DNA from: an uncultured Clostridium sp.
Lineage (GTDB): Bacteria; Bacillota_I; Bacilli_A; RF39; UBA660
Direction: 5' to 3'
Assembly (NCBI GenBank): GCA_964555985.1
Contig: CAZKUP010000012.1
Span: forward strand, 1-22,595
DNA: 22,595 nucleotides
The position numbers and the translations under genes were made by a program. The notes under the pieces were generated by a model. It saw nothing but the letters and a program-made list of their open reading frames with translations, searched no databases and had not been told where the DNA came from. Shown here in pieces: positions 18 through 22,595 of this stretch. Position 1 is the first letter of the stretch. Each line of letters starts with the position of its first letter.

Positions 18-359
18 TGGTGGAACCGAGGAGATTCGAACTCCTGTCCGAAAATATAGCTATATAAATATCTACAAACTTAGTTTATTTATAATTTTTA
101 TTAGAAACATAAAAATAAACAAATAGATTTCTAACTAGATTAGTATTTATTCATCATTTTTACTAATCATCAAATGATATATCCTGCTTTATTAAGCCTA
201 AGATATTCGTCACAGGAAAACAAATATTTAGACTGCCTTCTATTCTTAAGCGAAAGCTAATTGATTTCTGTTTCCAGTTATTTTTATTTTTGGAATTAAC
301 GCATGCCAACGGTTTGCAATTTATACTCTAATATTCCCGTCGAAACCAAAAACGGTCCC
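18..359 (-). ncRNA. ssrA: tmRNA (transfer-messenger RNA, SsrA)
   Basis: Reverse complement begins GGGACCGUUUUUGGUUUCGACGGG (tRNA-like 5' acceptor with G3:U wobble). It ends ...GGACAGGAGUUCGAAUCUCCUCGGUUCCACCA (T-arm plus acceptor 3' strand plus CCA). It lies immediately downstream of smpB, as is usual in Firmicutes. Tentative tag frame after AUAACU: GGA AAC AGA AAU CAA UUA GCU UUC GCU UAA, giving (A)GNRNQLAFA. Confidence 0.8.
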
Positions 360-365
360 ATAATT

Positions 366-400
366 AAATTATAACAAAAAAAACTAATATTTCATAGTCT
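366..400 (-). promoter_or_regulatory. putative ssrA promoter (extended -10 TGTTATAAT ~7 nt upstream of tmRNA 5' end)
   Basis: Minus-strand TGTTATAAT at 369-377, directly upstream of the GGGACCG 5' end of the tmRNA. The -35 element would fall within the smpB 3' end. Confidence 0.35.
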
Positions 401-818
401 TTTTATTAAATTTATCTATATCTCTTTCTTTTAGAACTTGCTTTTTATCATAATTCTTTTTACCCTTTGCAACACCAATAAGTATTTTTGCAAGTCCATT
501 TTTTATATATAATTTAATGGGAATAAGAGTATATCCTTCAATATTTAGCTTATCTCTCATTTTATATATTTCATTTTTATGTACTAAAAGTTTTCTAGTG
601 CGATCTTCTTCATGACTAAATATACCACTATTCTCATATTTAGATATATGCATATTTAAAATATATAATTCATTATTTTTTATAATTCCATAACTATCTT
701 TCAAATTTGCTTTACCCATTCTTATTGATTTTATTTCACCACCAGTAAGAACTATTCCACACTCATAAGTATCTTCAATAAAATAATCAAACTTTGCTTT
801 TCTATTTAATATTTCCAT
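384..818 (-). CDS. smpB: SsrA-binding protein SmpB
   Basis: Protein MEILNRKAKFDYFIEDTYECGIVLTGGEIKSIR... is typical SmpB. Start moved to ATG 816-818 (RBS GGTGA); the tracked TTG at 828-830 is unlikely. Adjacent to the tmRNA gene. Confidence 0.85.
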   Translation of the reverse strand: MEILNRKAKFDYFIEDTYECGIVLTGGEIKSIRMGKANLKDSYGIIKNNELYILNMHISKYENSGIFSHEEDRTRKLLVHKNEIYKMRDKLNIEGYTLIPIKLYIKNGLAKILIGVAKGKKNYDKKQVLKERDIDKFNKKTMKY

Positions 819-819
819 G

Positions 820-1980
820 CTAGTCACCAATTGAATAGAAATTAATTTTTAAATCATTCGAAGATAATAATGTTTTATATTTTTTATAATATGATTTATA
901 ATTTACTAACTCATTTGTTAATTTTGTAAAAGGTATTACTTTATAATCTGTACTATTATTATTATATGCATATGTAAATAATACACTTATATTTTCAAAT
1001 GAAACCTTTTTCTCTGTATTAGATTTAGTTATTTTTAAATCAAAATCAACCATTGCACTTACTCTTGAATCAATTGCATAATGCCCTGATAATAAGTTTC
1101 CTAGTGAATAACATACTAAAGTATTATTAATCATTTCAATAGGTTGTATTGTGTATCCAGTATTACCAACTACAATATCTACTCCCAAACCTGATAAATA
1201 TGTTGCAATTCTTTTTTGTTCTTCTGAAACAGTTTGTTTATCATATGCATCTAATACATTTCCACCACTATAATCTATACTTACCATGATTATATCTACT
1301 AAATCTTTAATACTCTCAACATCACTTTTTACAAGTTCATCACTATAAATATCAACAGCAAAAGCATTTTGTACTATTTCATCAGTTGCAGTTGTATAAG
1401 ATAAAAGTGCAATTTTAATACCATTTTTTTCAATTATATTATTTTTTAGTCTATTTTCTTCTGAATCATTAACTCCTGCATAAATATATTTGTTATTAGA
1501 AATTGTTTCAATAGTACTTTTTATTCCTGCAAGGCCTTTATCATATGCATGATATGAGCCAAGTGACATTGCATTAAATCCTAATTTTGATAATGATTTA
1601 ATTGTATCTTCTGGTGTATTATAACTATAATTATAACTTGTACCTGCTTCAGCTCCAGCAACTATACTTTGTTCAAAATAGAAATTTACATCTGATTTTT
1701 TCATAATATCATTTAAATCTGAAAATACTTTATCAAAATCATATCCATCACTAGTTTTAGTATCATACCACATATTGCTATTAATTAATACATTTCCACC
1801 TAATGTAAATGTAGTTGAATATACTTTATCTTTTGGATTTTCTTTTTCAAGTATGTCCGCATTAGTATCTTCTTTTTCCTTTAGAAAATACCCTCTAAAT
1901 AAATATAATGACCCAAATATACCTACAATAAGTAGCAATAATATTATAAATGGTGCCTTTTTAATTTTCTTCTTTTTCAT
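820..1980 (-). CDS. CapA/PGA_cap-family (metallophosphatase-like) membrane-anchored protein
   Basis: N-terminal TM segment. The rest of the body resembles the CapA poly-gamma-glutamate synthesis family (…SLGSYHAYDKGLAGI…GVDIVVGNTGYTIQPIE…). Sits between rnr and smpB. Confidence 0.55.
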   Translation of the reverse strand: MKKKKIKKAPFIILLLLIVGIFGSLYLFRGYFLKEKEDTNADILEKENPKDKVYSTTFTLGGNVLINSNMWYDTKTSDGYDFDKVFSDLNDIMKKSDVNFYFEQSIVAGAEAGTSYNYSYNTPEDTIKSLSKLGFNAMSLGSYHAYDKGLAGIKSTIETISNNKYIYAGVNDSEENRLKNNIIEKNGIKIALLSYTTATDEIVQNAFAVDIYSDELVKSDVESIKDLVDIIMVSIDYSGGNVLDAYDKQTVSEEQKRIATYLSGLGVDIVVGNTGYTIQPIEMINNTLVCYSLGNLLSGHYAIDSRVSAMVDFDLKITKSNTEKKVSFENISVLFTYAYNNNSTDYKVIPFTKLTNELVNYKSYYKKYKTLLSSNDLKINFYSIGD

Positions 1981-4072
1981 CTTTTACCTCCATTTTATTA
2001 ATAACCTCAAAATCAATTATTCCTTCTACTTTAGATGCATTAATACATTTTACATATATTATATCACCCAATCTATATCTTTTACCACTTCTTTTTCCTA
2101 CTATACTTTGACTAAATTCATCAACTATATAATAATCACCCTTTAAAGCAGAAACATGGACTCTACCTTCAATTCTATTTTCAAGTCTTACAAACATACC
2201 AGAAGGCACGACACTTTGTACTTTAGCAACAAACTCTTCTCCTATATGCTCTTGCATATATTCTGCCATTTTCATATCATCAACATCTCGTTCACATTCA
2301 ATTGCATTTCTTTCTTTTAAAGAAGAATGTTCTGCCTCTTTTTCTAATTTCTTAGATAAATGTACTAAGTCAAATGTACTTAGATTATCACCATGTAAAA
2401 TACTTTTTAAGACCCTATGAACTGTATCATCTGGATATCTTCTAATTGGACTTGTAAAATGGCAATAACATTTACTAGCAAGGCCATAGTGCCCCATATT
2501 TTCTATACTATAAACCGCTTTTTGCATAGACCTAAGTCCAAGTTCTGATACCATTTCATAATCTTTTTCATCTTTTAAACTAAGAAGTAATTCCTGCATT
2601 TGTTTAGGCTTAAATTCATTAATTTTACCCTTTATTTTAATTTTATGACCAAGAGCACTTAAAACACTAAAATATTCTCTTAATTTCTTTTCCCTAGGTA
2701 TTTCATGAATACGATACATCATAGGATAATCTAAAGAAGTTATATATTCTGCAACACATTCATTAGCAGCAATCATAAAGTCCTCAATTAATTTTTCTCC
2801 TGTACCTCTTTCTCTTTCTTTTATTTCTATAGGTTTACATTCTTCATCAACAATTATTTTAATTTCAGGAACATCAAAATTAATTTGACCTCTATCATCT
2901 TTTCTTTTTCTTAATATTTCAGACAATTCTTTCATTAAGTCAAGTTCATGAGTAAAATCTTCATATCCTTCTGAAACTATTCCCTCTTCTAAATACATAT
3001 TTGCTTTTTTGTAAGTCATTCTTAGTTTAGAATTTATAACTGCTTCATATATATCGAATCTAACTAATTTACCATTTGGATCATATTCCATATCACATGA
3101 CATTGTAAGTCTATCTACATGTGGATTAAGTGAACATATACCATTAGATAATTGATGTGGAAGCATTGGAATTACTCTATCAACAAGATATACACTTGTT
3201 GCTCTTTCTTCTGCATCTCTATTAAGTGCAGTTCCTTCTTTAACATAATGAGTTACATCTGCAATATGCACTCCAAGTAGATAATTACCATTATCAAGAA
3301 CATCAATATATATAGCGTCATCAAAGTCTTTCGCATCATCACCATCCATAGTAATAATCTTTTTATCTCTTAAATCTCTTCTTCCAACAATTTCATCATC
3401 AGTAACTTCAAGAGGAAGATTCTTTATTTCCTCCATTGTTTCATCAGTAAAATTTGGTTCTATATCATGTTCATATACTTTAGATAATATATCAATACCA
3501 ACATCATCCTTATGGCCTAATATCTTAATAACCTCACCATAATATTTATTTTTAGATACCTCAGCATAAGGTTTAACAATTACCTTATGACCAGGCATTG
3601 CATTATTTCTATGATGCTCATCTATTAATATTGTTAATTTTATTCTCTCATCATCAAGAATAATTTTACCACAATCTTTATCTAAGACAAATTCACCAAT
3701 AATTGTATCAAAAGACCTATCAAGTATTTTAATAATCTTTCCTTCTTCACTAGAAATGTATTCACATGCTACTAAATCATTGTGTATAGCGCCATTTAAG
3801 TTTTCTTTTTTAATATGTATATCTGGCTCATTTGACAAGATAACAAATCCAAATCCCTTTTTATTCACAGATAACTTACCTACTTTTAAATGTGTATTTT
3901 CATATAATGTATATTTATTTTTTTTAGTAACATATACATCTCCACATTTTTCAAGTGTTCTAAGTTCACTACATAAGCTATCTAAGGAAGCATTATTTAA
4001 CTTACTTTGTATTTCAAGTTCAGTAAGTGGAATTTCACTTTTTTTAAGTACATCTAAAATTTCTTCTCTCAT
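1961..4072 (-). CDS. rnr: ribonuclease R (RNB-family 3'-5' exoribonuclease)
   Basis: 703 aa with N-terminal HTH/cold-shock region, RNB catalytic core (…DGDDAKDFDDAIY…) and C-terminal S1 domain. Strong RBS AGGAGG. The secG-rnr-smpB-ssrA synteny is conserved. Confidence 0.9.
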   Translation of the reverse strand: MREEILDVLKKSEIPLTELEIQSKLNNASLDSLCSELRTLEKCGDVYVTKKNKYTLYENTHLKVGKLSVNKKGFGFVILSNEPDIHIKKENLNGAIHNDLVACEYISSEEGKIIKILDRSFDTIIGEFVLDKDCGKIILDDERIKLTILIDEHHRNNAMPGHKVIVKPYAEVSKNKYYGEVIKILGHKDDVGIDILSKVYEHDIEPNFTDETMEEIKNLPLEVTDDEIVGRRDLRDKKIITMDGDDAKDFDDAIYIDVLDNGNYLLGVHIADVTHYVKEGTALNRDAEERATSVYLVDRVIPMLPHQLSNGICSLNPHVDRLTMSCDMEYDPNGKLVRFDIYEAVINSKLRMTYKKANMYLEEGIVSEGYEDFTHELDLMKELSEILRKRKDDRGQINFDVPEIKIIVDEECKPIEIKERERGTGEKLIEDFMIAANECVAEYITSLDYPMMYRIHEIPREKKLREYFSVLSALGHKIKIKGKINEFKPKQMQELLLSLKDEKDYEMVSELGLRSMQKAVYSIENMGHYGLASKCYCHFTSPIRRYPDDTVHRVLKSILHGDNLSTFDLVHLSKKLEKEAEHSSLKERNAIECERDVDDMKMAEYMQEHIGEEFVAKVQSVVPSGMFVRLENRIEGRVHVSALKGDYYIVDEFSQSIVGKRSGKRYRLGDIIYVKCINASKVEGIIDFEVINKMEVKDEKEEN

Positions 4073-4100
4073 AGCATTCCTCCTATTATTATTATAGAAT

Positions 4101-4131
4101 AAAAAAAGACTTATAAAAAGTCTTTTTTTAA
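4101..4131. terminator. bidirectional rho-independent terminator between secG and rnr
   Basis: AAAAAAAGACTTATAAAAAGTCTTTTTTT is a perfect hairpin flanked by A and T runs. Confidence 0.7.
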
Positions 4132-4141
4132 AAATATTTAA

Positions 4142-4354
4142 TTAAAGTGACATAATTAGGGCAATTACCATAAAAACAGCACCTAAAACAGCAGTTAATC
4201 TGGTAATAAATAATTCCCCGCCTCTTTCTTTTCTTTTATTAAATAAATCAGAACTACCTCCGCCTAAGCCTTGAGATGCTCCTTCTGCTTTAGCACTTTG
4301 TAATAAAACAATAGCAATAAGCAATATTGATACAATTATAATTAATGTTTCCAT
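4142..4354 (-). CDS. secG: preprotein translocase subunit SecG
   Basis: 70-aa protein with two TM helices and a glycine-rich loop (GASQGLGGGSSDLF). RBS AAGGTGA. Conserved position upstream of rnr. Confidence 0.85.
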   Translation of the reverse strand: METLIIIVSILLIAIVLLQSAKAEGASQGLGGGSSDLFNKRKERGGELFITRLTAVLGAVFMVIALIMSL

Positions 4355-4428: not shown

Positions 4429-4447
4429 ATATCAAACATATGTTTGT
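4429..4447. promoter_or_regulatory. 19-bp palindromic operator-like motif ATATCAAACATATGTTTGT (copy 1, secG upstream region)
   Basis: An identical 19-mer recurs at 15560-15578. The core CAAACATATGTTTG is a perfect palindrome, close to the Firmicutes LexA/Cheo box CGAACATATGTTCG (GAAC to AAAC). Confidence 0.4.
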
Positions 4448-5382
4448 CATTCTAAATCTAATATATCTCTCCAATTAACAGGAAAACCTATTTCATCTAG
4501 TATTGTTTCAAGAGTAATACTATCTATCTTACCATCAAGAGCATCCACCTCATATCCTAGTTCGTAAATAAGAAGTCTAAAATCATCCTTACTAAGCATA
4601 TATTTAAACATTATAACTAATGAATATAAATCATTCGTACCATATATATATTCCTCATTATAAATAGGAATATTTAACTTATGATGATATATATTATTTG
4701 GTATACCTCTTTGTGTTTTATGATTATAAAGTATATCTTCATGAGCACAAAGATTTCTATAATTTGACATTATAGGTAAAAATATACTTAAATCTTCCTC
4801 ATTAATTCCATAATACTTTGCAATTTCAATCTTATCCTCATGTTTTAAAATATTATATAACTCACTTAATATTCCAAAAGATAAAACTTTTACTAATATC
4901 CACATAGGTATATAACCATAATTTGTTAAATAATGAAGTGTTGCAGTATGTTGTTTAGCATTAACTCTTATTTGCCTTTTCATTTTATTTATTACATCTG
5001 CTACTTGTCTATGTTTAGATATATTTGTATCAAAATTTGACATTTTTAAATAATCTTTTTCCTTATAACCATATTTACTTGACAAATGATAACTAAAGAT
5101 AGATTTTAAATTGTTTTCCACAATTAATAAATATTTAAACATAATATTTCTTAAATTTCTATCAAATGAAAACAATGCATACAATTCATCAAATGTTGCT
5201 CCATCTATAAATCTTTTATTTTCTCCATCTTTCATAAATATATGTCTATATCCATTTATAAAAAAGTAATTTTCTCTTAACAAAATACTTTTAGTCTTAT
5301 CATAATCATTAATAATTAAGCCCTTATCTTTTAATATTTCTATTTGTTCTTCAATAGTTTTAAATTGTTTTACACGCCCCAT
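4447..5382 (-). CDS. abortive infection protein, Abi_2 (AbiD/AbiD1/AbiF) family
   Basis: N-terminal …FKTIEEQIEILKDKGLII…ENYFFINGYRHIF…FDELYALFSFDRNLRNIMFKYLLIVENNLKSIFSYHL… matches the conserved Abi_2 N-terminal region as recalled. Confidence 0.8.
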   Translation of the reverse strand: MGRVKQFKTIEEQIEILKDKGLIINDYDKTKSILLRENYFFINGYRHIFMKDGENKRFIDGATFDELYALFSFDRNLRNIMFKYLLIVENNLKSIFSYHLSSKYGYKEKDYLKMSNFDTNISKHRQVADVINKMKRQIRVNAKQHTATLHYLTNYGYIPMWILVKVLSFGILSELYNILKHEDKIEIAKYYGINEEDLSIFLPIMSNYRNLCAHEDILYNHKTQRGIPNNIYHHKLNIPIYNEEYIYGTNDLYSLVIMFKYMLSKDDFRLLIYELGYEVDALDGKIDSITLETILDEIGFPVNWRDILDLE

Positions 5383-5576: not shown

Positions 5577-5592
5577 AAGACTTAGTCTTCTA
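5576..5592. terminator. bidirectional hairpin terminator (AGAAGAC-TTA-GTCTTCT)
   Basis: Perfect 7-bp stem with 3-nt loop, T-rich on both sides. It terminates both the small ORF (plus strand) and the nuclease gene (minus strand). Confidence 0.6.
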
Positions 5593-6280
5593 TTTTGCTA
5601 CTTCCATCCTTGTAATTAATACTTATTCCATCTTGCACATTATAAACATATACATTAAACTCAATACCTTCTCCATTATCTTCAATAGAATACCCTTCCA
5701 TAATAACGCCACTAGCAAGTAAATTATCTTCTTGATATATAGGTGTTACTCTATAAAGCACATGATTATGTGTTTTTTTTATGTAACTTGCAATCTTATT
5801 TTCATATTCAAGCATCACACTTGTATTCATTTGTCTAGTACATGTAATTAAATTCTTTTCAAAAGCGTTCTTTCCTGTCAATTGATATCCAATTAAATGA
5901 CATCTATTATATAAATATTTACCTTCAATATTATCATATTTTGCTTGATTCCAACCACTAGGTTTAATCATACCAATACTTTTTCTATCTTCTTTCGGCA
6001 TTAATTCTTCTCCTAAACAAGCACTTACCTTGCCTGCTCTTCCAAGAAAATCAAGTTCACTATAATATTCATACGAAGTATTAGGTAAATTATCATAATC
6101 AAATAAAGGTTTATTATTATTTAAAATTACAAAAGAAAACCCTCTATATTCCGGAATATTAGATATATCATATGTTTCATCTTGAGAATCATATATTGTT
6201 TTATCTTTATCAATATTATAATAATACATTGCTATAAAAAAAGTTATAACTGCTATAATTAAACTTACTATTTTTTTCAT
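5582..6280 (-). CDS. membrane-anchored extracellular DNA/RNA non-specific endonuclease (DNA-entry-nuclease-like)
   Basis: N-terminal TM anchor. Conserved …GWNQAKY…NRCHLIGYQLTG… block resembles the His-Me finger non-specific nuclease family (NucA/EndA-like). Confidence 0.55.
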   Translation of the reverse strand: MKKIVSLIIAVITFFIAMYYYNIDKDKTIYDSQDETYDISNIPEYRGFSFVILNNNKPLFDYDNLPNTSYEYYSELDFLGRAGKVSACLGEELMPKEDRKSIGMIKPSGWNQAKYDNIEGKYLYNRCHLIGYQLTGKNAFEKNLITCTRQMNTSVMLEYENKIASYIKKTHNHVLYRVTPIYQEDNLLASGVIMEGYSIEDNGEGIEFNVYVYNVQDGISINYKDGSSKIED

Positions 6281-7137: not shown

Positions 7138-7857
7138 TTACATTATATTTTTCATTAAAATTAATCGTATGACTTTAATAATATATAATATTTCAATAGT
7201 TTTCTTTAACTCATTAGAACAATAAATATTTATATATTCTAATCTTTCTTCTTCACTTAAACCTTTACTATTATTCTTAAACATATCTCCTAATTTTTTG
7301 TAATTTCCATTAATACTTTCATGACTGGCAATAATCATATCCATCTTAGATACATTTGTAAGGTCTAAATATATGCCATTTATTTTAGCAAGTGATTCTA
7401 TAAATACTCTTTGACTTCTACCATTACCTTCACGAAAAGGATGTAAAGCATTAATATCAGCAAATAATTCTACTAATTTATCTAGTGTTGTTTCATTATC
7501 ATAATCTACAAAGTATTTTTCTTTTTTTAACTTGCTAAATACATCATTGCCAAATGATTCTATATGCTCTGTTAAACAGAATAAATCTTGTTTAGCAATA
7601 TTACAGTTTCTTATATCTCCAGCCCATCTATAAACATCTTGAAATAAATATTTATGAATATCTTTTAAATATTTAAAGTCAAAATTACCTTTTAATGGTT
7701 TTTCGTTTAATTCTAAAGTTCTTAAAGATACAAGTTCTCTTTCAGCATTAAATAAATCTTCATCATTAGTAATATTTAATTTATTAATTAAAACATCAGT
7801 TCCTTTATAACAATAATCTGCAGTTCTTTCATAAGTATATTTATATTTATTATCCAT
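7138..7857 (-). CDS. fic: Fic-family protein (class I Fic toxin, adenylyltransferase-type FIC motif)
   Basis: Canonical FIC motif HPFREGNGRSQR. No internal (S/T)xxxE(G/N) inhibitory motif was seen. An 8-nt overlap with the upstream small ORF suggests translational coupling. Confidence 0.8.
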   Translation of the reverse strand: MDNKYKYTYERTADYCYKGTDVLINKLNITNDEDLFNAERELVSLRTLELNEKPLKGNFDFKYLKDIHKYLFQDVYRWAGDIRNCNIAKQDLFCLTEHIESFGNDVFSKLKKEKYFVDYDNETTLDKLVELFADINALHPFREGNGRSQRVFIESLAKINGIYLDLTNVSKMDMIIASHESINGNYKKLGDMFKNNSKGLSEEERLEYINIYCSNELKKTIEILYIIKVIRLILMKNIM

Positions 7858-13326: not shown

Positions 13327-13345
13327 TTGTCAATTGCTTTTTATT
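13316..13345. terminator. bidirectional terminator GCAATTGA-TTG-TCAATTGC
   Basis: Perfect 8-bp stem flanked by AAA and TTTTT, lying between the two convergent genes. Confidence 0.7.
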
Positions 13346-14003
13346 ATTCACTTAAATCTAGTCCAACAAATTCCTCTATAGGAAGAGATAAACATACACC
13401 TTTACCATCTGTTTTAATCCCTACATCTTTTGTAATTTCTTCCATAACTTTTTTTCTATCTTTACTTTGTACAATATTTAATACAATATCTTTTTCAGGT
13501 TCAATATTAAATCCTAGTACCTTAGATTTTTTTAACAATCCAAGCCCACGACCTTTGATAGATGTTCCACCTTGACATCCAACTTTTTTAGCAGATGTCA
13601 TTACATCTTCAAGAAGTCCTTCTGATACAATTGTCATAACTAAACTATATTTTAAATCATTTTCTCTCATATTTTCACACTCCTTCTTATTAAAATTATC
13701 ACTTAAATACTTATTTGAACTTTCTATAGGAATTGTAAAACAAATACCCGTACCTATATTAAATATATCAAAAACACTTGATACTTTATTTAATATTTCA
13801 CTACTTAAATAATCTGGAATAACTGCTAAAAAAATTTCTTTTTTTGTTTCATCTAATCCAAAATAACTAAGCACACTTAAAGATGCTGTGCCTGAAGCTT
13901 GCAAACATACTTTAAATTTAACATTATATTTATTTAATAAAGAGGTTACTTTCTTAGAATATCCCTTTTCTAATATTATAAATAGTAATTTAATATTAAC
14001 CAT
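13344..14003 (-). CDS. tandem P-II (GlnB-like) domain protein
   Basis: Two ~105-aa halves, each beginning like P-II (MVNIKLLFIILEKGY… / YSLVMTIVSEGLLEDVMTSAKKVGCQGGTSIKGRGLG). The start ATG 14001-14003 overlaps the stop of the upstream gene (ATGGTTAA), with GGGAG RBS. Confidence 0.55.
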   Translation of the reverse strand: MVNIKLLFIILEKGYSKKVTSLLNKYNVKFKVCLQASGTASLSVLSYFGLDETKKEIFLAVIPDYLSSEILNKVSSVFDIFNIGTGICFTIPIESSNKYLSDNFNKKECENMRENDLKYSLVMTIVSEGLLEDVMTSAKKVGCQGGTSIKGRGLGLLKKSKVLGFNIEPEKDIVLNIVQSKDRKKVMEEITKDVGIKTDGKGVCLSLPIEEFVGLDLSE

Positions 14004-15498
14004 TATCCCACTCCCATTCATAATCCACAATAGATTCATCTAATGACTCAATATATGATTCTTTTTTCAATTTAATATTATAAACAATACCTACTATTTC
14101 AATTGTAATAATTGGAATTAAAGAAACCATAGACGCTAACCCAAAAGCATATGTATATACATTTTTATTTAATTTACATGCCGCACCTATTGCCATTGGT
14201 AAAAGAAACGCTGTTGTAAGAGAACCTCCTGTCGCACCTCCTGAATCAAATGCTATTGCAGTAAAAACTTTAGGGATAAAAAACATTAATAAAAGTGCAA
14301 TTCCATAACCAACTAAAGCATAATAAATAAAAGAAGTGCCCGTATATATTCTTAAAATAGATAGTCCAGATGCTATACTTACACCAATTGCAAGTGCAAA
14401 TTTAAGTATACCTTTTGGAATATTTCCACGAGTAAACTCATCAATTTGATCAATAAGTATAATTACTGCAGGTTCTGCTATAGCAATAAAGAATGATATT
14501 ATCATAATAAGAGGTATTAATAAATAATTATTATCAAGTCCAGCAAAATACTCTCCCAAATAATATCCCATATTTAAAAATCCAACATTTGCTGCTACTA
14601 AAAATATTGTTAAACCAATTACAGTTATAAATATTCCAAGCATTATTTTACCAAATTCCTTCATTTTTACTCTTCTTGTAATAAAATTATAAATAACAAA
14701 AACTACTAAAATTGGAAGTATTGCTAAAAGTACATCTTTTAAAGATATTACTGCTTGTGATAAATAATTAGAAAATGAAATATTAGTATAAATTGAATTA
14801 TCAAATGCACTAGTATTACTAGTTTTAAAAAATAAACCAAGTAATAAAACCATAAGAATTGGGCCAGTTGATGCAAGTGAGATAAGTCCAAAACTTTCTT
14901 CTTTTGCTTTATTATCAATTCTATTTGAAACAAGTCCAATACCAAGTGTTACAATAAATGGAATACTTATCGTACCTGTTGTAACACCTCCTGAATCAAA
15001 CGCTAAAGGTATAAAATCTTCTCTAACAAAGAACATAATTACAAATATTATTGCAAAAAATATTATTAATATTTTATTTAAATCCAAACCAAATAAAGAT
15101 CTAAGCGAAGCAAGAAGAAGACACAAGCCCACTCCTAAACTAATTATTATAATTAATACCACACTAGATATTTCATTAAATTGTGATGCTAAAACCAATA
15201 AATCTGGTTCAGCAATTGTAACAACTGTACCAATAATAAAACTAACTATTAAAATTAACCATAATTTCTTACTTTCTACTAAATCTTTACCAATCTTATT
15301 TCCTATTATAACCATAGATAAATCAGCACCAAATGTAAACAAAGATGACCCTATTATAAGTAAAATTGAACTAAGTACAAAAGATTTAATTAAAAGACTA
15401 TCTATTGGAATAAAAAATTGTAATAATAAAACTATAATTAATACCGGACTAATTGTTTTAACTGAATCTATAAAATATTCTTTTATTCTCTCCATCAT
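13996..15498 (-). CDS. internally duplicated polytopic membrane protein, DUF1538-like (putative P-II-regulated transporter)
   Basis: Two homologous halves, each with an FDSGG(V/A)T(T/G)G motif and ≥12 TM segments in total. Start moved to MMERIKEY (ATG 15496-15498, RBS AGGGTGA). Translationally coupled to the P-II-like gene. Confidence 0.5.
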   Translation of the reverse strand: MMERIKEYFIDSVKTISPVLIIVLLLQFFIPIDSLLIKSFVLSSILLIIGSSLFTFGADLSMVIIGNKIGKDLVESKKLWLILIVSFIIGTVVTIAEPDLLVLASQFNEISSVVLIIIISLGVGLCLLLASLRSLFGLDLNKILIIFFAIIFVIMFFVREDFIPLAFDSGGVTTGTISIPFIVTLGIGLVSNRIDNKAKEESFGLISLASTGPILMVLLLGLFFKTSNTSAFDNSIYTNISFSNYLSQAVISLKDVLLAILPILVVFVIYNFITRRVKMKEFGKIMLGIFITVIGLTIFLVAANVGFLNMGYYLGEYFAGLDNNYLLIPLIMIISFFIAIAEPAVIILIDQIDEFTRGNIPKGILKFALAIGVSIASGLSILRIYTGTSFIYYALVGYGIALLLMFFIPKVFTAIAFDSGGATGGSLTTAFLLPMAIGAACKLNKNVYTYAFGLASMVSLIPIITIEIVGIVYNIKLKKESYIESLDESIVDYEWEWDNG

Positions 15499-15559
15499 AT
15501 TCACCCTATTATTATTATAAATGAAAAAATAATATTTGGGTACTATTTTTTTAACAATT

Positions 15560-15578
15560 TTAAAAAATGATATCAAAC
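15560..15578. promoter_or_regulatory. 19-bp palindromic operator-like motif ATATCAAACATATGTTTGT (copy 2, upstream of DUF1538-like gene)
   Basis: Exact repeat of 4429-4447. It lies ~62 nt upstream of the start codon and just upstream of a candidate TTGTTA-N17-TATTAT promoter on the minus strand. Confidence 0.4.
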
Positions 15579-15849: not shown

Positions 15850-16335
15850 ATGAAAAGATGGATTAAAATAACTCTTGGGGTATTTGGTATTATAATATTA
15901 TTATTTATAATTGATATAGTATGTATTTTTACAATTAATAGACCTTTATTTGCTAAAAAAATAGATAATAGTATATATAGAGGAATATTTTATGATACAT
16001 ATAATTGTGAAGAATATAGTGTTCCACAAATAAAAGCAAAAAAAGCAAAATTTACTTGTTCTACTGTAAAAATTAATATTGGTAAAGTTATAAGTATTAC
16101 TGATACTTCAAAAAATATAAAAGATTTTGCTTGCGCTGAAGCATTAGAAAGTTTTTATGAAGATGAAAATTATACTTATTATTGGAGTTGTATTAAAAAT
16201 AAATATATTATTGTTAAATACGAAAATGGTTATAAAGAAAAAGTAAGTGATGCTTTAAAACATGGAACAATAACTACTCAAGATTTAGATACTTATAATA
16301 TTAATTATATTAAATATGAAAAAACTATTAATTAA
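15850..16335 (+). CDS. hypothetical membrane-anchored Cys-containing protein
   Basis: Strong RBS GAGGAGGA, N-terminal TM helix, 161 aa with 6 Cys. No family recognised. Confidence 0.5.
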   Translation: MKRWIKITLGVFGIIILLFIIDIVCIFTINRPLFAKKIDNSIYRGIFYDTYNCEEYSVPQIKAKKAKFTCSTVKINIGKVISITDTSKNIKDFACAEALESFYEDENYTYYWSCIKNKYIIVKYENGYKEKVSDALKHGTITTQDLDTYNINYIKYEKTIN

Positions 16336-16345
16336 GGAGGATGTC

Positions 16346-16966
16346 ATGAAGAAAAATGTTTCTATATTGCTTAGTATTTTTGCACTATGTCTTATAACAG
16401 GATGTTCTAAAACACCTGAATTAAGTTATAGTGGAGATGAACTATTATATACTTGCACTGATGAACAAGTAAGTTTATTTAAGGAAGATGTTAATGTTAA
16501 TATAACTGATAAACAAAGTTTTGCATATTTTGATAATAATTCAGAAATGAAAGAATTTACTGATGGTCTATTAGAATTTAATGAAGAAAATAGACCTGAA
16601 ATTTCAAGATGTTATTTTGTTAAAAGAGATGAAATAACTGGGAACGAATTTAGTAGTAAATCTAACATTGCATTTAAAGATTCAGCTGAAGGAAGTATGA
16701 AGTTAAAAATAACTGGTACTTATTCTTATAAAATAGTTGATAGCAAAACATTTATTGAAAATTATACAACTACTAACAAATTAACAAATGCAATATATAC
16801 TCAAATTAATGCAATATTTATTGCTAATATGGGTTCTAAAACTTATGCAGAATTATCAAATGAAAAAGAATTTGATGTTGAAAGATTAAATGCTTTAAAT
16901 TCAACAATTACAAGCAAATATGGTATAGAAGTAACTAAAGTAAATATCAACCTAGAGAAAAATTAA
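16346..16966 (+). CDS. putative lipoprotein
   Basis: Start moved to MKKNVSILLSIFALCLITGCSK (lipobox LITGC) with RBS AAGGAGGA at 16333-16340. A weak SPFH/band-7-like motif is present (YGIEVTKVNI). Confidence 0.55.
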   Translation: MKKNVSILLSIFALCLITGCSKTPELSYSGDELLYTCTDEQVSLFKEDVNVNITDKQSFAYFDNNSEMKEFTDGLLEFNEENRPEISRCYFVKRDEITGNEFSSKSNIAFKDSAEGSMKLKITGTYSYKIVDSKTFIENYTTTNKLTNAIYTQINAIFIANMGSKTYAELSNEKEFDVERLNALNSTITSKYGIEVTKVNINLEKN

Positions 16967-16974
16967 CTTTGTAG

Positions 16975-17004
16975 AAAGTCGTCAGCTTTCTTTTTTTCAA
17001 TATA
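16975..17004 (+). terminator. weak terminator-like hairpin after lipoprotein gene
   Basis: AGAAAG-tcgtcag-CTTTCT followed by TTTTTTC. Confidence 0.35.
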
Positions 17005-17289
17005 AATTAAATTATAGTATAATTATATATAAAGATGTTAAAAAATAACAAGCGAAAATAAATTATAAAAAAATTCAAAATGTTCAAAAGTAAATAATAA
17101 AATTAATAAGTTTTTGAAAAAAATTAATATTGATAAAATGAATTTGAAGAAAGAAAAAGATGTCAATAAGCTTTTTAAACTGTTAAAAGAAATATCATCT
17201 AGTTGTAATAATGAATGTCGCTGCTACTCCTTATTTAACCATTATAAAAGTGATATTAGAAGCAGTATTCCATTCAAAAAAATCAGAAA

Positions 17290-17316
17290 TTAAAAAAGGC
17301 AAAGTAAAAATGCCTT
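17290..17316 (-). terminator. minus-strand terminator AAGGCA-UUUUUACUU-UGCCUU + U6
   Basis: 6-bp GC-containing stem followed by UUUUUUAAUUUC on the minus strand only. It overlaps the 3' end of a plus-strand 51-codon ORF. Confidence 0.5.
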
Positions 17317-17349
17317 AACTAAATATGTATTTTAATTTAAATTTGGTAT

Positions 17350-17466
17350 AAAAAAACGACTTAAACTCTTTTAAAAAAGTTTAAATCGGTATTAACTTAT
17401 GGCACCGTGTGTGATCAAGTTTACAACAATACCTTTTTTATAAAATGGAACTAAGTTCCACTTGCT
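17350..17466 (-). ncRNA. candidate small RNA (~115 nt) in the 536-bp convergent intergenic region
   Basis: Minus-strand promoter TTGATT-N18-TG-TATAAT (−35 at 17497-17502, −10 at 17473-17478). 5' hairpin UGGAACUUAGUUCCA. GC-richer central segment closed by GGUAUU…AAUACC. Intrinsic terminator CGAUUUAAAC-N12-GUUUAAGUCG + UUUUUUU at 17350-17388. A second minus-strand terminator lies at 17290-17316. Confidence 0.4.
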
Positions 17467-17502
17467 GAGTAAATTATAACATATTTTAAAATATCTAATC
17501 AA

Positions 17503-17736
17503 CTATTTTTCCTTTTTAATAGATTCTTTATATGCATTTAAACCAATTTTACCAATTAATCCTAACGACAAAACAATTAATGGAGCAATTACTGAAGCAG
17601 CAACACCTAAATTTTTAGATAATACATTTGATAAAAATGCAACAACAAAGAACTTAGTAATTTCGACATGTGTTTTAAGTTCCTTAATGTCATCTTTATA
17701 TTTTTCATCTTCTAAGATAAATTTATCAAATTCCAT
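17503..17736 (-). CDS. 77-aa small membrane protein (acidic N-terminus, C-terminal hydrophobic helix/helices)
   Basis: …ITKFFVVAFLSNVLSKNLGVAASVIAPLIVLSLGLIGKIG… It is the last gene of the tightly spaced protease trio. Confidence 0.55.
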   Translation of the reverse strand: MEFDKFILEDEKYKDDIKELKTHVEITKFFVVAFLSNVLSKNLGVAASVIAPLIVLSLGLIGKIGLNAYKESIKKEK

Positions 17737-17747
17737 TTTATACTTCT

Positions 17748-17936
17748 TTAAATAATCTTTTTTTCACTACCACCAAATGTAGCAGTATGTTCAGTACCTG
17801 TTACATGTATCCATACATCTATCGCTTCTTCTTCTGAATATTCTTTAAGTAAATCTTTTATTAAGTTTTGTTGAAACAATTCTAATGTTTCAAGCAAATC
17901 TTCTATTTTATAATTTTCTAATTCTTGTATTTCCAT
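17748..17936 (-). CDS. 62-aa acidic helical protein (unknown; candidate inhibitor/adaptor)
   Basis: RBS AGGAGAA inside the protease 3' end. Its ATG lies 2 nt after the protease stop. 16 acidic residues (14 E, 2 D) of 62 (~26%). Confidence 0.5.
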   Translation of the reverse strand: MEIQELENYKIEDLLETLELFQQNLIKDLLKEYSEEEAIDVWIHVTGTEHTATFGGSEKKII

Positions 17937-17938
17937 TG

Positions 17939-18601
17939 TTATTCTCCTATCATATCTTTAATGTATTCAGCTGATACACATTGAGTGGTTTGATGTAATT
18001 CCCTTGGATTAATTCCTCCTAAAGAAATTCCAGATGTTGGAGAAAACGCCCCAATCAAAACCCCTATTATTTTATTTTTTTCCTTTGAATAAATAACTGA
18101 ACCTGATTGTCCGGGTCTTGTTTGAGTATTTATAACACAATATTTAGATTTTATACCGGAACTATTTAAAAGAATCTTTGCACCTATGTGTGCTTTTTGC
18201 ATTGTTAATACTTTTCTTCCTTCTACACAATGTGGAAAACCAAATATATAAATCTCATCTCCAACATTTATTTCATCTGTATTTCCAATTGGAATTGTAG
18301 GAAAATTATATTCTATTTTATCCACAAACTCTAAAATTGCTAAATCTCTAAACGGATCACTATATTTTATTTTCAATTTTGAATATGAGCATTGATTAAT
18401 TGTTGTATCCTGATATTCATTAAATGAATTTATAGTAGGAATAATCATGACTAACCCATCATCATTATCTCCAATAACATGCCTCGGTGTAACAATACAA
18501 TTCACATTTTTTATAGCAAAACCAGTTCCTAACATTTCGATTTCATTTTCGTTACGTATTCTTCCTATTACATATACAAGTTGCGTCATTATATCTACCA
18601 T
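17939..18601 (-). CDS. cytoplasmic trypsin-like (S1/chymotrypsin-fold) serine protease
   Basis: No signal peptide. Catalytic-triad context TPRHVIG (His), DLAILEF (Asp), TRPGQSGSVIY (GxSGG-like Ser). RBS GGATAGGATGTGA. 32 nt downstream of the methyltransferase stop. Confidence 0.7.
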   Translation of the reverse strand: MVDIMTQLVYVIGRIRNENEIEMLGTGFAIKNVNCIVTPRHVIGDNDDGLVMIIPTINSFNEYQDTTINQCSYSKLKIKYSDPFRDLAILEFVDKIEYNFPTIPIGNTDEINVGDEIYIFGFPHCVEGRKVLTMQKAHIGAKILLNSSGIKSKYCVINTQTRPGQSGSVIYSKEKNKIIGVLIGAFSPTSGISLGGINPRELHQTTQCVSAEYIKDMIGE

Positions 18602-18633
18602 AAAATCACATCCTATCCATTATAAAAAATATA

Positions 18634-19872
18634 TTAATTTTCATCAGCTATAATATTTTCTATTTCTTCTCCAATTTTTTCAATAACTCCAACTACTAGA
18701 GCATTTCCCATCATAAAGTTTCTTTTCTTTTCAGTCATACCTGTATTTGTCCAATTGTCTGGAAATCCATTGATTCTTTCACATTCAACAGGGGTTAATA
18801 ATCTAGGTTTCTTAGTTTTATAATCCTCTATAACATGTGTTGTTCTACTTACTCCACCTTCACTAGTAAGCATTGTTCTAGCTGGAGCATCTAAATTATC
18901 TGGAAATGGCATAGCACCTTCACAATAATTATAAGGGTCTCCATTAGGTTTAATTCTAGGAATCTTCTTACTACCTTTTAAGAATGCAAATTTTTCAATT
19001 TGTGCATCTGTTAAAAAGTATTTTTTATCAACTTCTTGTTCTTCTCTAATTTTTCTTAATGGATATATTAAATTATAATCTGCTTTAGTTTTAACTGTAT
19101 AAATTCCACCATCATGCATAACTCCAGCATTATAAAATTCGCATTTAAAGTTATTACTTACATCAATTAAATCTTTATATTCTGAAATACTTGATTTAGT
19201 AATTGCATGATATTGATTTTCGATTGGAAATTGTTTAACAAATATCCCTTCTTCAAATATTAAATCTCTATCATTTATGTTTTTCATTTTCTTATAATAA
19301 TTAGTTGATTTATGATAAGCGAATATATAAATTCTTCTTCTTTTTTGTGGAAGTCCATATTCTCCAGCATTAATAACTCTCCACTCAACATCATAACCAT
19401 TTTCATAGAAACTTCTTAAAATCATTCCAAAATCTCTACCTCTTTGTTTGGCAGGAGATAATAATAATCTATCAACATTTTCTAGTAATACAAATGGAGG
19501 TTGTTTTACTGCAAGTATTTCTTCAATAGCCCACCATAAAACACCTTTTTTACCTTCAATACCTTTACTATTAGATAACGTTTGAGCTACTGAATAATCT
19601 TGACATGGAAATCCACCCACTAATAATGTGTGGTTAGGAATTTCTTTTTTATCAACTTCAAATATATCTACATTGCTAACATCATCAAAACCGAATCTTG
19701 TACCATAACAATTATAAGCATCTTGTGTTTTTGTAGATGGTTCCCATTGATTAGCCCATACAAATTCCCAATTACCATTTTCTTCTACTTTATCATTATC
19801 TAATGAAACTTTATTTAAACCGCATCTAAAACCACCGACACCAGCGAATAATTCCACACAAGTCTTTTTCAT
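18634..19872 (-). CDS. DNA (cytosine-5)-methyltransferase, Sau3AI-methylase-like (predicted GATC-specific m5C MTase)
   Basis: Motif I ELFAGVGGF, motif IV GGFPCQDYS, motif VI ENV, WANQWEPS block. 412 aa. RBS GGAGG. Divergent from a MutH/Sau3AI-like endonuclease gene. Confidence 0.8.
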   Translation of the reverse strand: MKKTCVELFAGVGGFRCGLNKVSLDNDKVEENGNWEFVWANQWEPSTKTQDAYNCYGTRFGFDDVSNVDIFEVDKKEIPNHTLLVGGFPCQDYSVAQTLSNSKGIEGKKGVLWWAIEEILAVKQPPFVLLENVDRLLLSPAKQRGRDFGMILRSFYENGYDVEWRVINAGEYGLPQKRRRIYIFAYHKSTNYYKKMKNINDRDLIFEEGIFVKQFPIENQYHAITKSSISEYKDLIDVSNNFKCEFYNAGVMHDGGIYTVKTKADYNLIYPLRKIREEQEVDKKYFLTDAQIEKFAFLKGSKKIPRIKPNGDPYNYCEGAMPFPDNLDAPARTMLTSEGGVSRTTHVIEDYKTKKPRLLTPVECERINGFPDNWTNTGMTEKKRNFMMGNALVVGVIEKIGEEIENIIADEN

Positions 19873-19910
19873 TTTGTACCTCCTGTTTATTGTTAAATAA
19901 CACTAATTAT

Positions 19911-19982
19911 ATTATAATATAATTGATTGAAAAGATCAACCTTACCAGAGAATATTATACTAAATTTCTTGGTAAAGATCAA
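19911..19982 (-). promoter_or_regulatory. two tandem near-consensus promoters for the MTase, each TTGATC-N17-TATAAT, with GATC inside each -35
   Basis: Minus-strand −35 elements at 19977-19982 and 19934-19939 (both TTGATC), with −10 elements at 19954-19959 and 19911-19916 (both TATAAT). A third GATC at 20027-20030 lies in the endonuclease 5' UTR. Confidence 0.5.
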
Positions 19983-20044
19983 CTTTTCTATATAAATATT
20001 TTATATTATTTTTTTGATAAAAACAAGATCGAAAGGAGAAATTT

Positions 20045-21427
20045 ATGAAAAAAGGAAGACATTATTCAGAAACTGAAATTAGAATACTAGCTCAATCCGT
20101 AATCGGTAAAACTTTTAATGAAATCAAAGAGTATGAAATTGTTTCAATAGACGATTCAAAGATTCAAAAAGGTTCCTTAGGTGGAATAATAGAAGAAGCA
20201 TTATATGGTATTGAACCTAATGGTGAATCAGAACCAGATTTTATAGATGCAGGAATTGAATTAAAAGTAACACCATATAAGAAAAATAAAGACAATACTT
20301 TATCTGCAAAAGAAAGACTTGTATTAAATATGATTGACTTCATGACAGAATATAAAAATGAATTTAAATCAAGTCATTTCTGGTTTAAAAATAATAGACT
20401 TGAAATAATATGGTACATGCATGAAGATAATAAAGATAAATATGAATTTAAAATTACAAATGAATTACTATTAGATTTATCATTAAGCGAAGATATTAAA
20501 CAAATAGAAAAAGATTTCTATGTAATTACAAATAAAATTAAAGAAGGCAAAGCTCACGAATTATCAGAAGCAGATACAATGTATTTAGGTGCATGTACTA
20601 AAGGTGCTAATTCTAATGATGTAAGACAACAACCATTTAATGATTTACCAGCAAAACGAAGAGCTTTCTGTTTTAAATCTTCATATATGACACAATTAGT
20701 AAGAAAATATATTGGAGATTATTCTAATGTTGAAAAAGTATTAAAAGGTACTGATAAGACATTTAATGAATTTATAGAAAGTGTTGTTAACAAATATAAA
20801 GGAAAAACTCAAAAAGAATTAATGAATGAATATGGACTTGAATCAACTGCTAAAAATTTAAATAATATGTTAATTAGTAGAATGTTTAAAGTTAAAAGTA
20901 AGTTAGCAGAAACAGAAGAATTCCAAAAAGCTAAGATTATTCCTAAAACAATTAGAATAGAAGAAAATGGAAGAATTAAAGAATCAATTTCTTTCCCTTA
21001 TTTTAAATATACAGAATTAGTAAATCAAGATTGGGAAACTTCTGATTTAAAGGAAGAACTTGAAACAACTAAATATATGTTCTTTGTGTTCAAAATGGAA
21101 AATGGAGAGTATGTATTTAAAGGTATTAAATTATGGAATATGCCTGAGTTAGATATTGAAACATCTGTAATGGAAATGTGGAAGAAAACATATAATACTA
21201 TTAAAAGTGGAAATATTGTTAAATCAATAGAGAATGGATATAGAACTACTAATTTCGTAGGCATGAGTGAAAATTTAGTTTGTCATGTGAGACCTCATGG
21301 AAGAAATGCGCAAGATACTTGTAAATTACCTGTACCTGATAAATTAACAGGAGCTACAGAATACACAAAACATTGTTTTTGGATTAATAGTTCTTATATT
21401 AGAGAAATATTTAATGAATACATTTAA
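20045..21427 (+). CDS. type II restriction endonuclease, Sau3AI/MutH-like family (predicted GATC)
   Basis: N-terminal domain aligns to MutH blocks (KGSLGGIIEEALYG…EPDF…GIELKVTPY…ERLVL, versus MutH KGWIGVLLEIWLG…EQDF…GVELKTIP). 460 aa, like Sau3AI-family enzymes. RBS AAAGGAGA. Confidence 0.7.
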   Translation: MKKGRHYSETEIRILAQSVIGKTFNEIKEYEIVSIDDSKIQKGSLGGIIEEALYGIEPNGESEPDFIDAGIELKVTPYKKNKDNTLSAKERLVLNMIDFMTEYKNEFKSSHFWFKNNRLEIIWYMHEDNKDKYEFKITNELLLDLSLSEDIKQIEKDFYVITNKIKEGKAHELSEADTMYLGACTKGANSNDVRQQPFNDLPAKRRAFCFKSSYMTQLVRKYIGDYSNVEKVLKGTDKTFNEFIESVVNKYKGKTQKELMNEYGLESTAKNLNNMLISRMFKVKSKLAETEEFQKAKIIPKTIRIEENGRIKESISFPYFKYTELVNQDWETSDLKEELETTKYMFFVFKMENGEYVFKGIKLWNMPELDIETSVMEMWKKTYNTIKSGNIVKSIENGYRTTNFVGMSENLVCHVRPHGRNAQDTCKLPVPDKLTGATEYTKHCFWINSSYIREIFNEYI

Positions 21428-21454
21428 AAACAACTTTGATGAAAGTTGTTTTTT
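21426..21454. terminator. bidirectional terminator AAAACAACTTT-gatga-AAGTTGTTTT
   Basis: Perfect 10-11-bp stem between the convergent endonuclease and mobC genes, flanked by A and T runs. Confidence 0.75.
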
Positions 21455-21767
21455 ACATAAATCTATTTCTTATTTCTGTCACCAATCTAGATATCTCATT
21501 TCTGTACAATTTTAATTCATATGTATAATCATTTCCTGTTTCATCAGTCTTACTAATTATTTTATCAATAGTATGTGCTATTTCTAATAATCTTTGAAAT
21601 ATATTATAAAATTCTTGTGGTGGTTTTTCACGTATAGATTGTCCTTCTAAAGCCAAAAGAATAATTGTTGTGATTGGTAATTCAGACATATCTTTTCTTT
21701 TCATTAAATCAGCATATTCTTTTTCATCCATTCTAATATGAACATCATATTTTCTTTTTCTATTCAT
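21453..21767 (-). CDS. mobC: plasmid mobilisation relaxosome accessory protein MobC-like
   Basis: 104 aa. RKYDVHIRMDEKEYADLMKRKDMSELPITTIILLAL…FYNIFQRLLEIAHTIDKI resembles the MobC family (RHH-like N-terminus plus …NNLNQIA…-type helix). RBS GGAGAA. Confidence 0.55.
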   Translation of the reverse strand: MNRKRKYDVHIRMDEKEYADLMKRKDMSELPITTIILLALEGQSIREKPPQEFYNIFQRLLEIAHTIDKIISKTDETGNDYTYELKLYRNEISRLVTEIRNRFM

Positions 21768-21774
21768 TTATTTT

Positions 21775-21850
21775 CTCCTTTCTAAAATTTAGGGGATTGG
21801 GGATTTCCCCATAATGTGAATTTGGTGGTGGGTACACAAATTCAGTACTT
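21775..21850. promoter_or_regulatory. oriT-like element upstream of mobC (two inverted repeats, locally GC-rich)
   Basis: GGGGA-TT-TCCCC (within AGGGGATTGGGGATTTCCCC) and TGAATTTG-gtggtgggtaca-CAAATTCA. This is the only GC-rich patch in the region, placed where mobC-associated oriTs normally sit. Confidence 0.4.
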
Positions 21851-21862
21851 GCTAAGTAATAT

Positions 21863-22132
21863 TTATTTTAAATTTTCTATATCATTTATAGATTGATTAG
21901 TCACTTTTGATAATATTTCTTTTATCTTTTTATCAATTTTATCTTCCTCAAAATCATTATCATTCATATCATTTTCATCTCTAAATACACCTAATATATT
22001 TACTGGATGAATACCATAAAATCCATCATTATATTCAATCTTTTCTTCTGGAAATAATCTTACATAATCATAATCATATGGCATAGTATGTTTAACTTCA
22101 CCAGTATCAAAGTTCATAAATCCAGGAAACAT
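21863..22132 (-). CDS. hypothetical acidic protein (possibly a fragment of a degraded gene)
   Basis: 89 aa, no SD. An upstream start-less ORF in the +1 frame (22157-22330, …KIYFRNSFYDNFHKLFLDGYLDTTILQSTPNNNVKIRFSTYRPREEVLNILIS) suggests a frameshifted or decayed gene. Confidence 0.3.
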   Translation of the reverse strand: MFPGFMNFDTGEVKHTMPYDYDYVRLFPEEKIEYNDGFYGIHPVNILGVFRDENDMNDNDFEEDKIDKKIKEILSKVTNQSINDIENLK

Positions 22133-22595
22133 TTGAACATCATAATATGTCCTTAGCTTATCAATATGTTTAAAACTTCTTCTCTAGGTCTATAAGTTGA
22201 GAATCTAATTTTAACATTATTATTAGGTGTTGATTGTAATATTGTAGTATCTAAATATCCATCTAAAAATAATTTATGGAAGTTATCATAGAATGAATTC
22301 CTAAAATATATTTTATCAACTACAACTATTTTTCCAATTTGTTTTATGTAAATGGTAAAATAAGAAAATTAACCAATATTAAGTATGACCAAAAACTATC
22401 TTCTAATCACTCTATTGAATATAAAATAAACACCTCTCTACCTAAATTTACTTCCTATGAAGAAAATGATAATTTTAAACGACTAATATCTATTAAGAAT
22501 AATAGCTACATTATTTAATTAAATATGAAAATAAGAATAGATTGTGACTTTTTAGTGAAAATGTTACATTGTTGTAATACAATTTTATATAAAAA

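Follow-up and report, generated by a model that had tools for sequence, protein, structure and literature searches.

What kind of element lies directly behind the methyltransferase gene of a restriction-modification (R-M) system in an uncultured Clostridium sp. of the lineage UBA660 (GTDB: Bacteria; Bacillota_I; Bacilli_A; RF39; UBA660), and is it a new module? The window analysed here is the whole of a 22,595-nucleotide (nt) stretch, positions 1 to 22,595 of contig CAZKUP010000012.1 in GenBank assembly GCA_964555985.1, and its positions 17503-18633 carry three closely packed open reading frames (ORFs). An initial annotation, made from the letters alone, had described them as three genes of no named system, encoding a cytoplasmic trypsin-like protease, a 62-amino-acid (aa) acidic protein and a 77-aa membrane protein. 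Our analysis gives a different answer: positions 17503-18601 are one copy of the two-gene candidate cassette PDC-M35, catalogued in PADLOC, with its second gene, B, interrupted by a frameshift.

The arrangement of the ORFs was recovered as first described. The protease ORF (gene A or PDC-M35A; 17939-18601, minus strand, 220 aa) starts 32 nt past the stop codon of a C5 cytosine methyltransferase (MTase) gene on the same strand (18634-19872, minus), which belongs to a Sau3AI-family type II R-M system; it is followed after 2 nt by the 62-aa ORF (17748-17936, minus) and, after a further 11 nt, by the 77-aa ORF (17503-17736, minus). The number of genes is where the two accounts part. Profile hidden Markov model searches, suggested at the outset as a check, identify the protease through PADLOC and Pfam and B through PADLOC, B itself having no Pfam family. 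The protease matches PADLOC profile PDC-M35A with an expectation value (E) of 3.5e-88, its residues 5-218 aligning with profile positions 4-216 of 216. The 62-aa ORF matches profile positions 1-60 of PDC-M35B (E 9.4e-14) and the 77-aa ORF positions 72-144 of the same profile (E 1e-19); since the two match successive parts of one profile in different frames, they are the two halves of a single gene. With one A added, this PDC-M35B gene (17503-17936, minus strand) encodes a 144-aa protein that matches profile positions 1-144 of 148 at E 1.1e-39; in alignments with 13 intact homologues (141-150 aa), 90-100% of its length is covered. The 62-aa ORF then corresponds to B residues 1-60 followed by two out-of-frame residues and a stop, and the 77-aa ORF to residues 68-144. 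The locus therefore has what defines PDC-M35 in its A match, its B match and the same-strand adjacency of A then B, and departs from it in that the two genes are not both intact.

The interruption falls in a run of seven adenines (A7; T7 on the plus strand) at 17758-17764 of the minus strand, where the coding strand reads GGT AGT GAA AAA AAG ATT ATT TAA. A DNA alignment against three intact homologues contains a single 1-nt gap, at this run, and the restored protein reads …FGGSEKKDYLKKYKMEFDK… around the junction. An identical protease (P0014) is present on seven contigs. The window is matched at 100% identity by six per-run assemblies of the SRR141607xx series, with A7 in every one that extends to the site. 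Contig L019, which belongs to another project (SRR20681290), has A8 and with it an open B frame; over 1,237 nt aligned, the extra A is its only difference from the window (0 mismatches, 1 gap). Because A7 is reproduced and the A8 allele is otherwise identical, the split is a genuine and very recent homopolymer-length polymorphism. In the window the A7 copy most likely leaves the cassette OFF, and it could revert through replication slippage.

The wider family bears out the two-gene structure. When 1.84 billion cluster representatives were searched with a profile, 509 B-family proteins were returned, 224 of them at E<=1e-10, nearly all of 137-170 aa; the sole entries of 62 and 77 aa are the window's own fragments. 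Protease homologues numbered 570. We collected 80 protease-anchored metagenomic loci, 68 of which had enough downstream sequence for B to be scored, and a full-length, single-frame B lies directly downstream of A in 66 of the 68 (97%), at a median distance of 8 nt; the two remaining loci are visibly decaying copies. Every B-anchored locus, conversely, has the protease upstream. The A-then-B pairing is near-obligate, and conservation of the neighbourhood thereby speaks for a compact, co-conserved cassette of defence islands, kept as a pair with one B ORF and not as a trio. The cassette is seen in Firmicutes and Gammaproteobacteria from many habitats, on contigs that span 24-65% GC, and it moves among defence islands and mobile elements of many phyla. 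A search of 2.9 million viral contigs brought up no relatives and the PLSDB plasmids gave no near match, and on these two results carriage by phages or plasmids was set aside. Either gene can be damaged, and decay has struck other lineages independently. B is broken in the window, in an Aeromonas veronii locus (L027, 8651-9070) with a nonsense codon just before the hydrophobic hairpin described below, and in a truncated copy (L097), and another frameshifted B was found as P0280; the protease is broken by a nonsense codon or truncation beside an intact B in two loci (L078, L095), and in one (L107) both genes are frameshifted.

How should the split in the window be understood, if not as a polymorphism that inactivates one gene? 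That it separates two functional genes, a free acidic inhibitor or pro-peptide and a free 77-aa membrane effector, would suit the tight packing of the ORFs and the position of the break, which lies near a predicted domain boundary just past the loop at residues 47-58 of B. This three-gene reading is effectively refuted by the single B ORF in 66 of 68 loci and in nearly all of the 509 family representatives, by the existence of the same DNA with A8, and by the 77-aa ORF itself, which is out of frame with the 62-aa ORF. The true start of B has an AGGAG Shine-Dalgarno (SD) sequence 7 nt upstream, inside the last codons of the protease gene; no SD-like motif lies in the 25 nt upstream of the 77-aa ORF, and its start methionine is non-conserved, the corresponding column 68 being D, E or K in the B family, which together mark this ORF as a remnant and not a designed gene. 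An error of sequencing or assembly that hides a true A8 tract and an intact B is just as hard to credit: some platforms are error-prone at homopolymers, but A7 recurs at 100% identity in per-run assemblies from six runs as well as in the deposited contig. It is also very improbable that the A7 allele still yields full-length B by programmed -1 ribosomal frameshifting or transcriptional slippage. The ORF2 frame does contain a perfect in-frame heptamer of the dnaX type, A_AAA_AAG, and a -1 shift there gives exactly the family-consensus sequence ...GGSEKKDYLKKYK...; against this, there is no downstream stimulatory structure (minimum free energy -7.7 kcal/mol, z = -1.3, with 26 of 200 shuffles as good) and, judged from the sequence, no correctly spaced upstream SD-like element, the heptamer is missing from homologues, and the A8 allele and hundreds of single-ORF homologues make the unshifted gene the norm. 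We accordingly dropped programmed frameshifting, given a perfect heptamer with neither stimulators nor conservation; any -1 frameshifting on A7 would amount at most to a low-level leak. The rival with most to recommend it, although we still regard it as unlikely, is phase variation, in which the A7/A8 tract would be a reversible ON/OFF switch of a costly defence cassette and the split a regulated state. Phase-variable R-M and defence genes are common, the natural alleles differ by tract length alone in 1,237 nt, and slippage at A8 is mechanistically easy. Yet A/T runs of at least 7 are ordinary in this 24%-GC window (32 in 22.6 kb, 19 of them coding), two other coding runs of 8 occur within it, homologues do not share the A tract, eight adenines are few for a contingency tract, and the alleles come from just two independent populations, each apparently homogeneous in its assemblies.

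Turning to the proteins of PDC-M35, the protease matches Pfam Trypsin_2 at E 3e-16, and the full S1 triad context attributed to it holds: H41, D86 and S166 (codons at 18479-18481, 18344-18346 and 18104-18106, minus strand) do not vary across 50 aligned homologues. Its proposed lack of a signal peptide likewise agrees with an N-terminus without a hydrophobic h-region, the maximum Kyte-Doolittle (KD) value over 15 residues being 1.32 in the first 25 windows, by a crude test that is not SignalP. The AlphaFold2 (AF2) model has a mean predicted local distance difference test (pLDDT) of 83, and its best matches among Protein Data Bank folds are Deg1, HtrA and DegS, with template modelling scores of ~0.65-0.68 at 18-21% identity. 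NCBIfam HtrA/DegS models score it at 18-31 bits, far under their cut-offs of 335-800, and no PDZ or sensor domain is present in the 220 residues, so that the protein consists of the protease domain only. Among the PADLOC profiles it is related to defence-linked trypsin domains, namely RT-Protease_XI (5e-18) and protease-type LmuA (5e-13). On its sequence and modelled fold, gene A is best described as a predicted cytoplasmic serine protease domain of HtrA/DegS type (S1C) with an intact triad. Beyond the triad, in residues 124-129 and 203-208 (motifs GFPHCVEGR and PRELHQTTQC), five positions never vary (H124, E127, G128, R129 and C208) and C125 hardly does; they could form a site for metal binding or redox chemistry that serves regulation. 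A loop at residues 186-198 (…SGISLGG…) is conserved as well and is the sole low-confidence part of the model; it ends in L-G-G, an echo of the F-G-G motif in B.

B is less conserved than A, with a mean column identity of 31% as against 56%. Its AF2 model (pLDDT 89, predicted template modelling score (pTM) 0.83) has nine helices and no strands. The N-terminal domain is an acidic four-helix unit with its helices within residues 3-46, and is followed by a loop at residues 47-58, in which only residues 50-54 have a pLDDT below 50, by two amphipathic helices at 59-89, and by a hydrophobic hairpin at 95-131 (helices 95-110 and 114-131). The 62-aa ORF that had been counted as 16 acidic residues in 62 is indeed acidic, with 15 (24%); its suggested role as a pro-peptide or inhibitor comes close, in that its sequence is the N-terminal domain of intact B, but it is not a separate protein. 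The 77-aa ORF does have the character of a membrane protein with an acidic head, combining a transmembrane (TM)-grade segment (KD up to 2.54) with 9 D/E in 27 residues. The hydrophobic helical hairpin of restored B, as delimited from KD windows of up to 2.54 and from the AF2 helices, covers residues ~92-134 (17536-17664, minus strand), its segment 110-133 being TM-grade and 91-113 weaker and amphipathic, and it is strongly conserved, including G111 and P119. Residues 47-56 of the loop (G-T-E-H-T-A-T-F-G-G; 17769-17798, minus strand) are exposed and conserved, with the motif G47..T51..F54-G55-G56, and form a candidate site of recognition or cleavage by the protease; F54 and G55 rank among the most conserved columns in 131 sequences. 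At E<=1, none of these 131 B members hits a relevant family in Pfam, a library expected to include Trypco and EACC1 models, and no structural relative of B was found among solved or viral structures.

The defence context that had been noticed around the locus was recovered: the Sau3AI-family restriction endonuclease (REase; 20045-21427, plus strand, E 1.9e-148), an AbiD protein (4447-5382, 8e-61) and a Fic protein matching PADLOC PDC-S04 (7138-7857, 9e-70) all gave matches. The idea that the module belongs to the R-M methyltransferase did not survive comparison, for among 64 protease lineages a Sau3AI-type R-M neighbour occurs in this strain only, and functional coupling to it was dropped for that reason. 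The 149 nearest-neighbour ORFs of these lineages include AbiD (three times), SIR2 (twice), BrxL, MTases and REases, integrases, resolvases and transposases, and no family occurs more than 4 times. With no neighbour family recurring beyond that, the cassette is autonomous, without a fixed sensor or partner, and a conserved third gene was rejected on this count. Elsewhere it is found within defence loci of other kinds. In Clostridium perfringens (L028-L030; ~4600-14250 in L028) it sits inside a type I R-M system, between hsdS and hsdR, in the order hsdM, hsdS, small recombinase, A, B, a SMODS and SLATT_4 pair, and hsdR, such that two cassettes are nested in one R-M system; in human-gut contigs the islands that hold it are bounded by integrases and also carry MazG-like, SLFN-type helicase, RloB/AAA_21, Mrr and Gabija-like genes. 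Terminator-like sites numbered 3 against 0.4 expected. One of them, a hairpin with a 14-bp stem and a T-run (17357-17388, minus strand), lies ~115 nt 3' of B and none lies between the MTase and the protease, which makes co-transcription of MTase, A and B plausible, with the hairpin the likely end of the transcript.

PDC-M35 was catalogued as cassette CAS_00131 (FAM_02427>>FAM_02508) by Payne et al. 2024 (bioRxiv 10.1101/2024.01.29.577857), among 145 explicitly untested 'phage defence candidates' compiled from genes that lie inside BREX, DISARM and type I R-M systems. The copy in the window resembles the catalogued system in its full-length HMM matches, gene order, strand, tight spacing and R-M/defence embedding, and differs in its B, which a frameshift has divided into two ORFs; as a family, PDC-M35 is a 'guilt-by-embedding' prediction. 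We lean towards an anti-phage role for PDC-M35. As a mechanism we propose that B would be a latent membrane toxin that its own N-terminal domain keeps in check; once a phage infects, protease A would cut it in the exposed F-G-G loop, freeing the C-terminal hairpin module to insert into and permeabilise the membrane, and the infection would thus be aborted. It keeps, as the leading hypothesis, the protease-gated membrane effector with an acidic pro-part that the initial annotation had suggested, now as a single pro-protein. What prompts it is that a conserved, exposed loop has an acidic domain on one side and a membrane module on the other; beside a protease with no other partner, this arrangement fits the pattern of protease-activated effectors. 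Cleavage of B in this loop with release of a membrane-permeabilising C-terminal fragment is a tentative suggestion by analogy, to which we give somewhat less than even weight; the explanation as a whole, joining PDC-M35 identity, the frameshift and the latent-toxin mechanism, we hold to be probable. A fuller version is rather doubtful: the pair would be a minimal, self-contained abortive system where a phage cue, acting directly or through the N-terminal domain of B, triggers the sensor-less S1C protease, which then cuts the all-alpha pro-toxin at the F-G-G loop and frees a helical hairpin that permeabilises the membrane, with A7/A8 slippage as the switch in this low-GC Firmicute. Such an effector would have a fold of its own, with no relation to that of gasdermin, EACC1 or Pepco.

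Several characterised systems offer points of comparison. The EACC1 modules act through a C-terminal fragment that is toxic and permeabilises membranes once the autoinhibitory N-terminal part is removed (Evans et al. 2025, PMC12642450), and PDC-M35 shares with them a small non-enzymatic protein beside a protease and, as proposed for B, the logic of N-terminal release. The EACC1 proteins, however, are beta-rich and are cut by a caspase-like cysteine protease fused to sensors such as Avs, DGR and DnaK-like domains (PMC12642450), whereas B is all-alpha with a hydrophobic hairpin, has no sequence or fold similarity to EACC1, and stands next to a sensor-less serine protease of type S1C. Pepco, the small partner of a trypsin-like protease in Pepco/Trypco, becomes a pore-former after a single cleavage (PMC12642450); here too the partnership is alike, and the fold and topology of B are not, since the beta-strand fold (barrel or sheet oligomer) of EACC1 and Pepco has no counterpart in a model of nine helices. 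With the bacterial gasdermin-protease systems (PMC12642450) the proposed likeness is a protease-gated membrane pore and abortive infection, and B lacks the gasdermin fold. In trypsin-MBL pairs a defence-associated trypsin-like protease activates an adjacent pro-effector, and the pairs are mobile between defence contexts (Tuck et al. 2025, PMC12799240; bioRxiv 10.1101/2025.09.03.673762); their effector is a nuclease zymogen encoded upstream and their protease is fused to HamA, Avs or LmuA, while PDC-M35 has a candidate membrane effector encoded downstream and a stand-alone protease. DegS and HtrA, finally, are the closest solved folds of A and a precedent for an allosterically gated S1C protease that cuts a membrane protein, but they are periplasmic and PDZ-regulated, whereas A is predicted to be cytoplasmic, has no PDZ domain and shares the low identity given above.

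A number of observations weigh against a protease-activated membrane toxin of the kind proposed. No sensor domain or trigger is identifiable for the protease, B matches no known pore-former, its all-alpha make-up sets it apart from EACC1, Pepco and gasdermin, which are beta-rich, and its high pTM may reflect no more than a compact membrane-protein model. A and B are disrupted about equally, each in roughly 5% of lineages, and nothing marks B as especially costly; gene decay is for this reason uninformative on the toxicity of B, and recurrent B loss as a sign of toxicity was dropped, the protease being broken about as often. The searchable literature yielded no experimental test of PDC-M35, and other PDC candidates have had mixed outcomes, with protection by 4 of 8 in one study (PMC12881386) and by 0 of 2 in another (PMC12409345).

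Two other accounts of the pair have to be set beside the latent-toxin proposal. The protease might be the effector and B its membrane anchor, inhibitor or sensor, in the manner of a toxin-antitoxin system, with the acidic N-terminal domain or F-G-G loop of B blocking the active site until a phage cue arrives and A then degrading host or phage proteins. HtrA/DegS-type proteases are classically allosterically gated, and this account, the main mechanistic rival although we rate it as fairly improbable, draws on the HtrA/DegS fold match of A, on the far higher conservation of A relative to B, and on the possibility that the conserved loop of B serves as a pseudo-substrate. It has to contend with the fact that a bare 220-aa protease without a targeting domain would be an unusual effector, that the conserved hydrophobic hairpin with G111 and P119 suggests selection on the membrane activity of B, and that, where such protease-effector pairs have been characterised, toxicity resides in the small partner (PMC12642450). 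A role outside defence, such as the maturation of a membrane-active peptide or bacteriocin-like precursor, or an addiction module of a mobile element, seems less probable again. The acidic, helical N-terminal domain of B is leader-like and ends in the conserved F-G-G, recalling double-glycine leader peptides, and integrases, resolvases and transposases are frequent neighbours; yet the conserved unit includes no transporter, signal peptide or immunity gene, 0 of 131 B members match a Pfam leader or bacteriocin family, the pair is not found in the 2.9 million viral contigs, and it recurs within or beside defence systems, also in the source catalogue (bioRxiv 10.1101/2024.01.29.577857).

The remainder of the window holds further features of its own. 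GATC is under-represented ~3.4-fold (14 sites observed against ~48 expected), a depletion consistent with a long-active Sau3AI-type R-M system. Three of the 14 sites fall in the 172-nt divergent intergenic region between MTase and REase (19873-20044), two of these within an imperfect 43-nt tandem repeat (19909-19994) that may be a methylation-sensitive control region. Three independent assemblies end exactly at 17002 (region ~16975-17002) and contig L014 spans 17002-22385, which suggests that the ~5.4-kb unit comprising a NikA-like ORF, the Sau3AI R-M system and PDC-M35 is an island that varies between strains; att-like repeats were looked for and not found. Just upstream of the island's putative boundary, at 15850-16966, a 161-aa membrane protein without a family overlaps a 216-aa lipoprotein-like protein with a partial SPFH/Band-7 domain, and at 13344-15576 a P-II-like protein of 231 aa overlaps a 526-aa membrane protein resembling fused UmpA/UmpB subunits of a Na,Li,K/H+ antiporter, a resemblance whose scores are well under the NCBIfam cut-offs. 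At the other end of the window, a canonical transfer-messenger RNA (tmRNA; 18-359, minus strand) clusters with SmpB, RNase R and SecG within 18-4354, and tmRNA loci are classic sites of island integration. After this cluster comes a second defence-like patch, in which the AbiD gene is followed by an NS-type endonuclease (5582-6280), an amidase and the Fic PDC-S04 gene.

For this strain the result is a correction: what looked like a novel trio is a catalogued two-gene candidate in frameshifted form, and its place behind an R-M methyltransferase is incidental. The PDC-M35 family is notable in its own right, being widespread, with 570 protease homologues and 509 B representatives, near-obligate in its pairing, and built around a B protein without a Pfam family or structural relative. 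If true, the proposed mechanism would bring an alpha-helical effector and a sensor-less protease into the class of protease-activated death effectors, itself established only recently. The natural alleles, A7 and A8, offer an isogenic OFF/ON pair that is ready for comparison.

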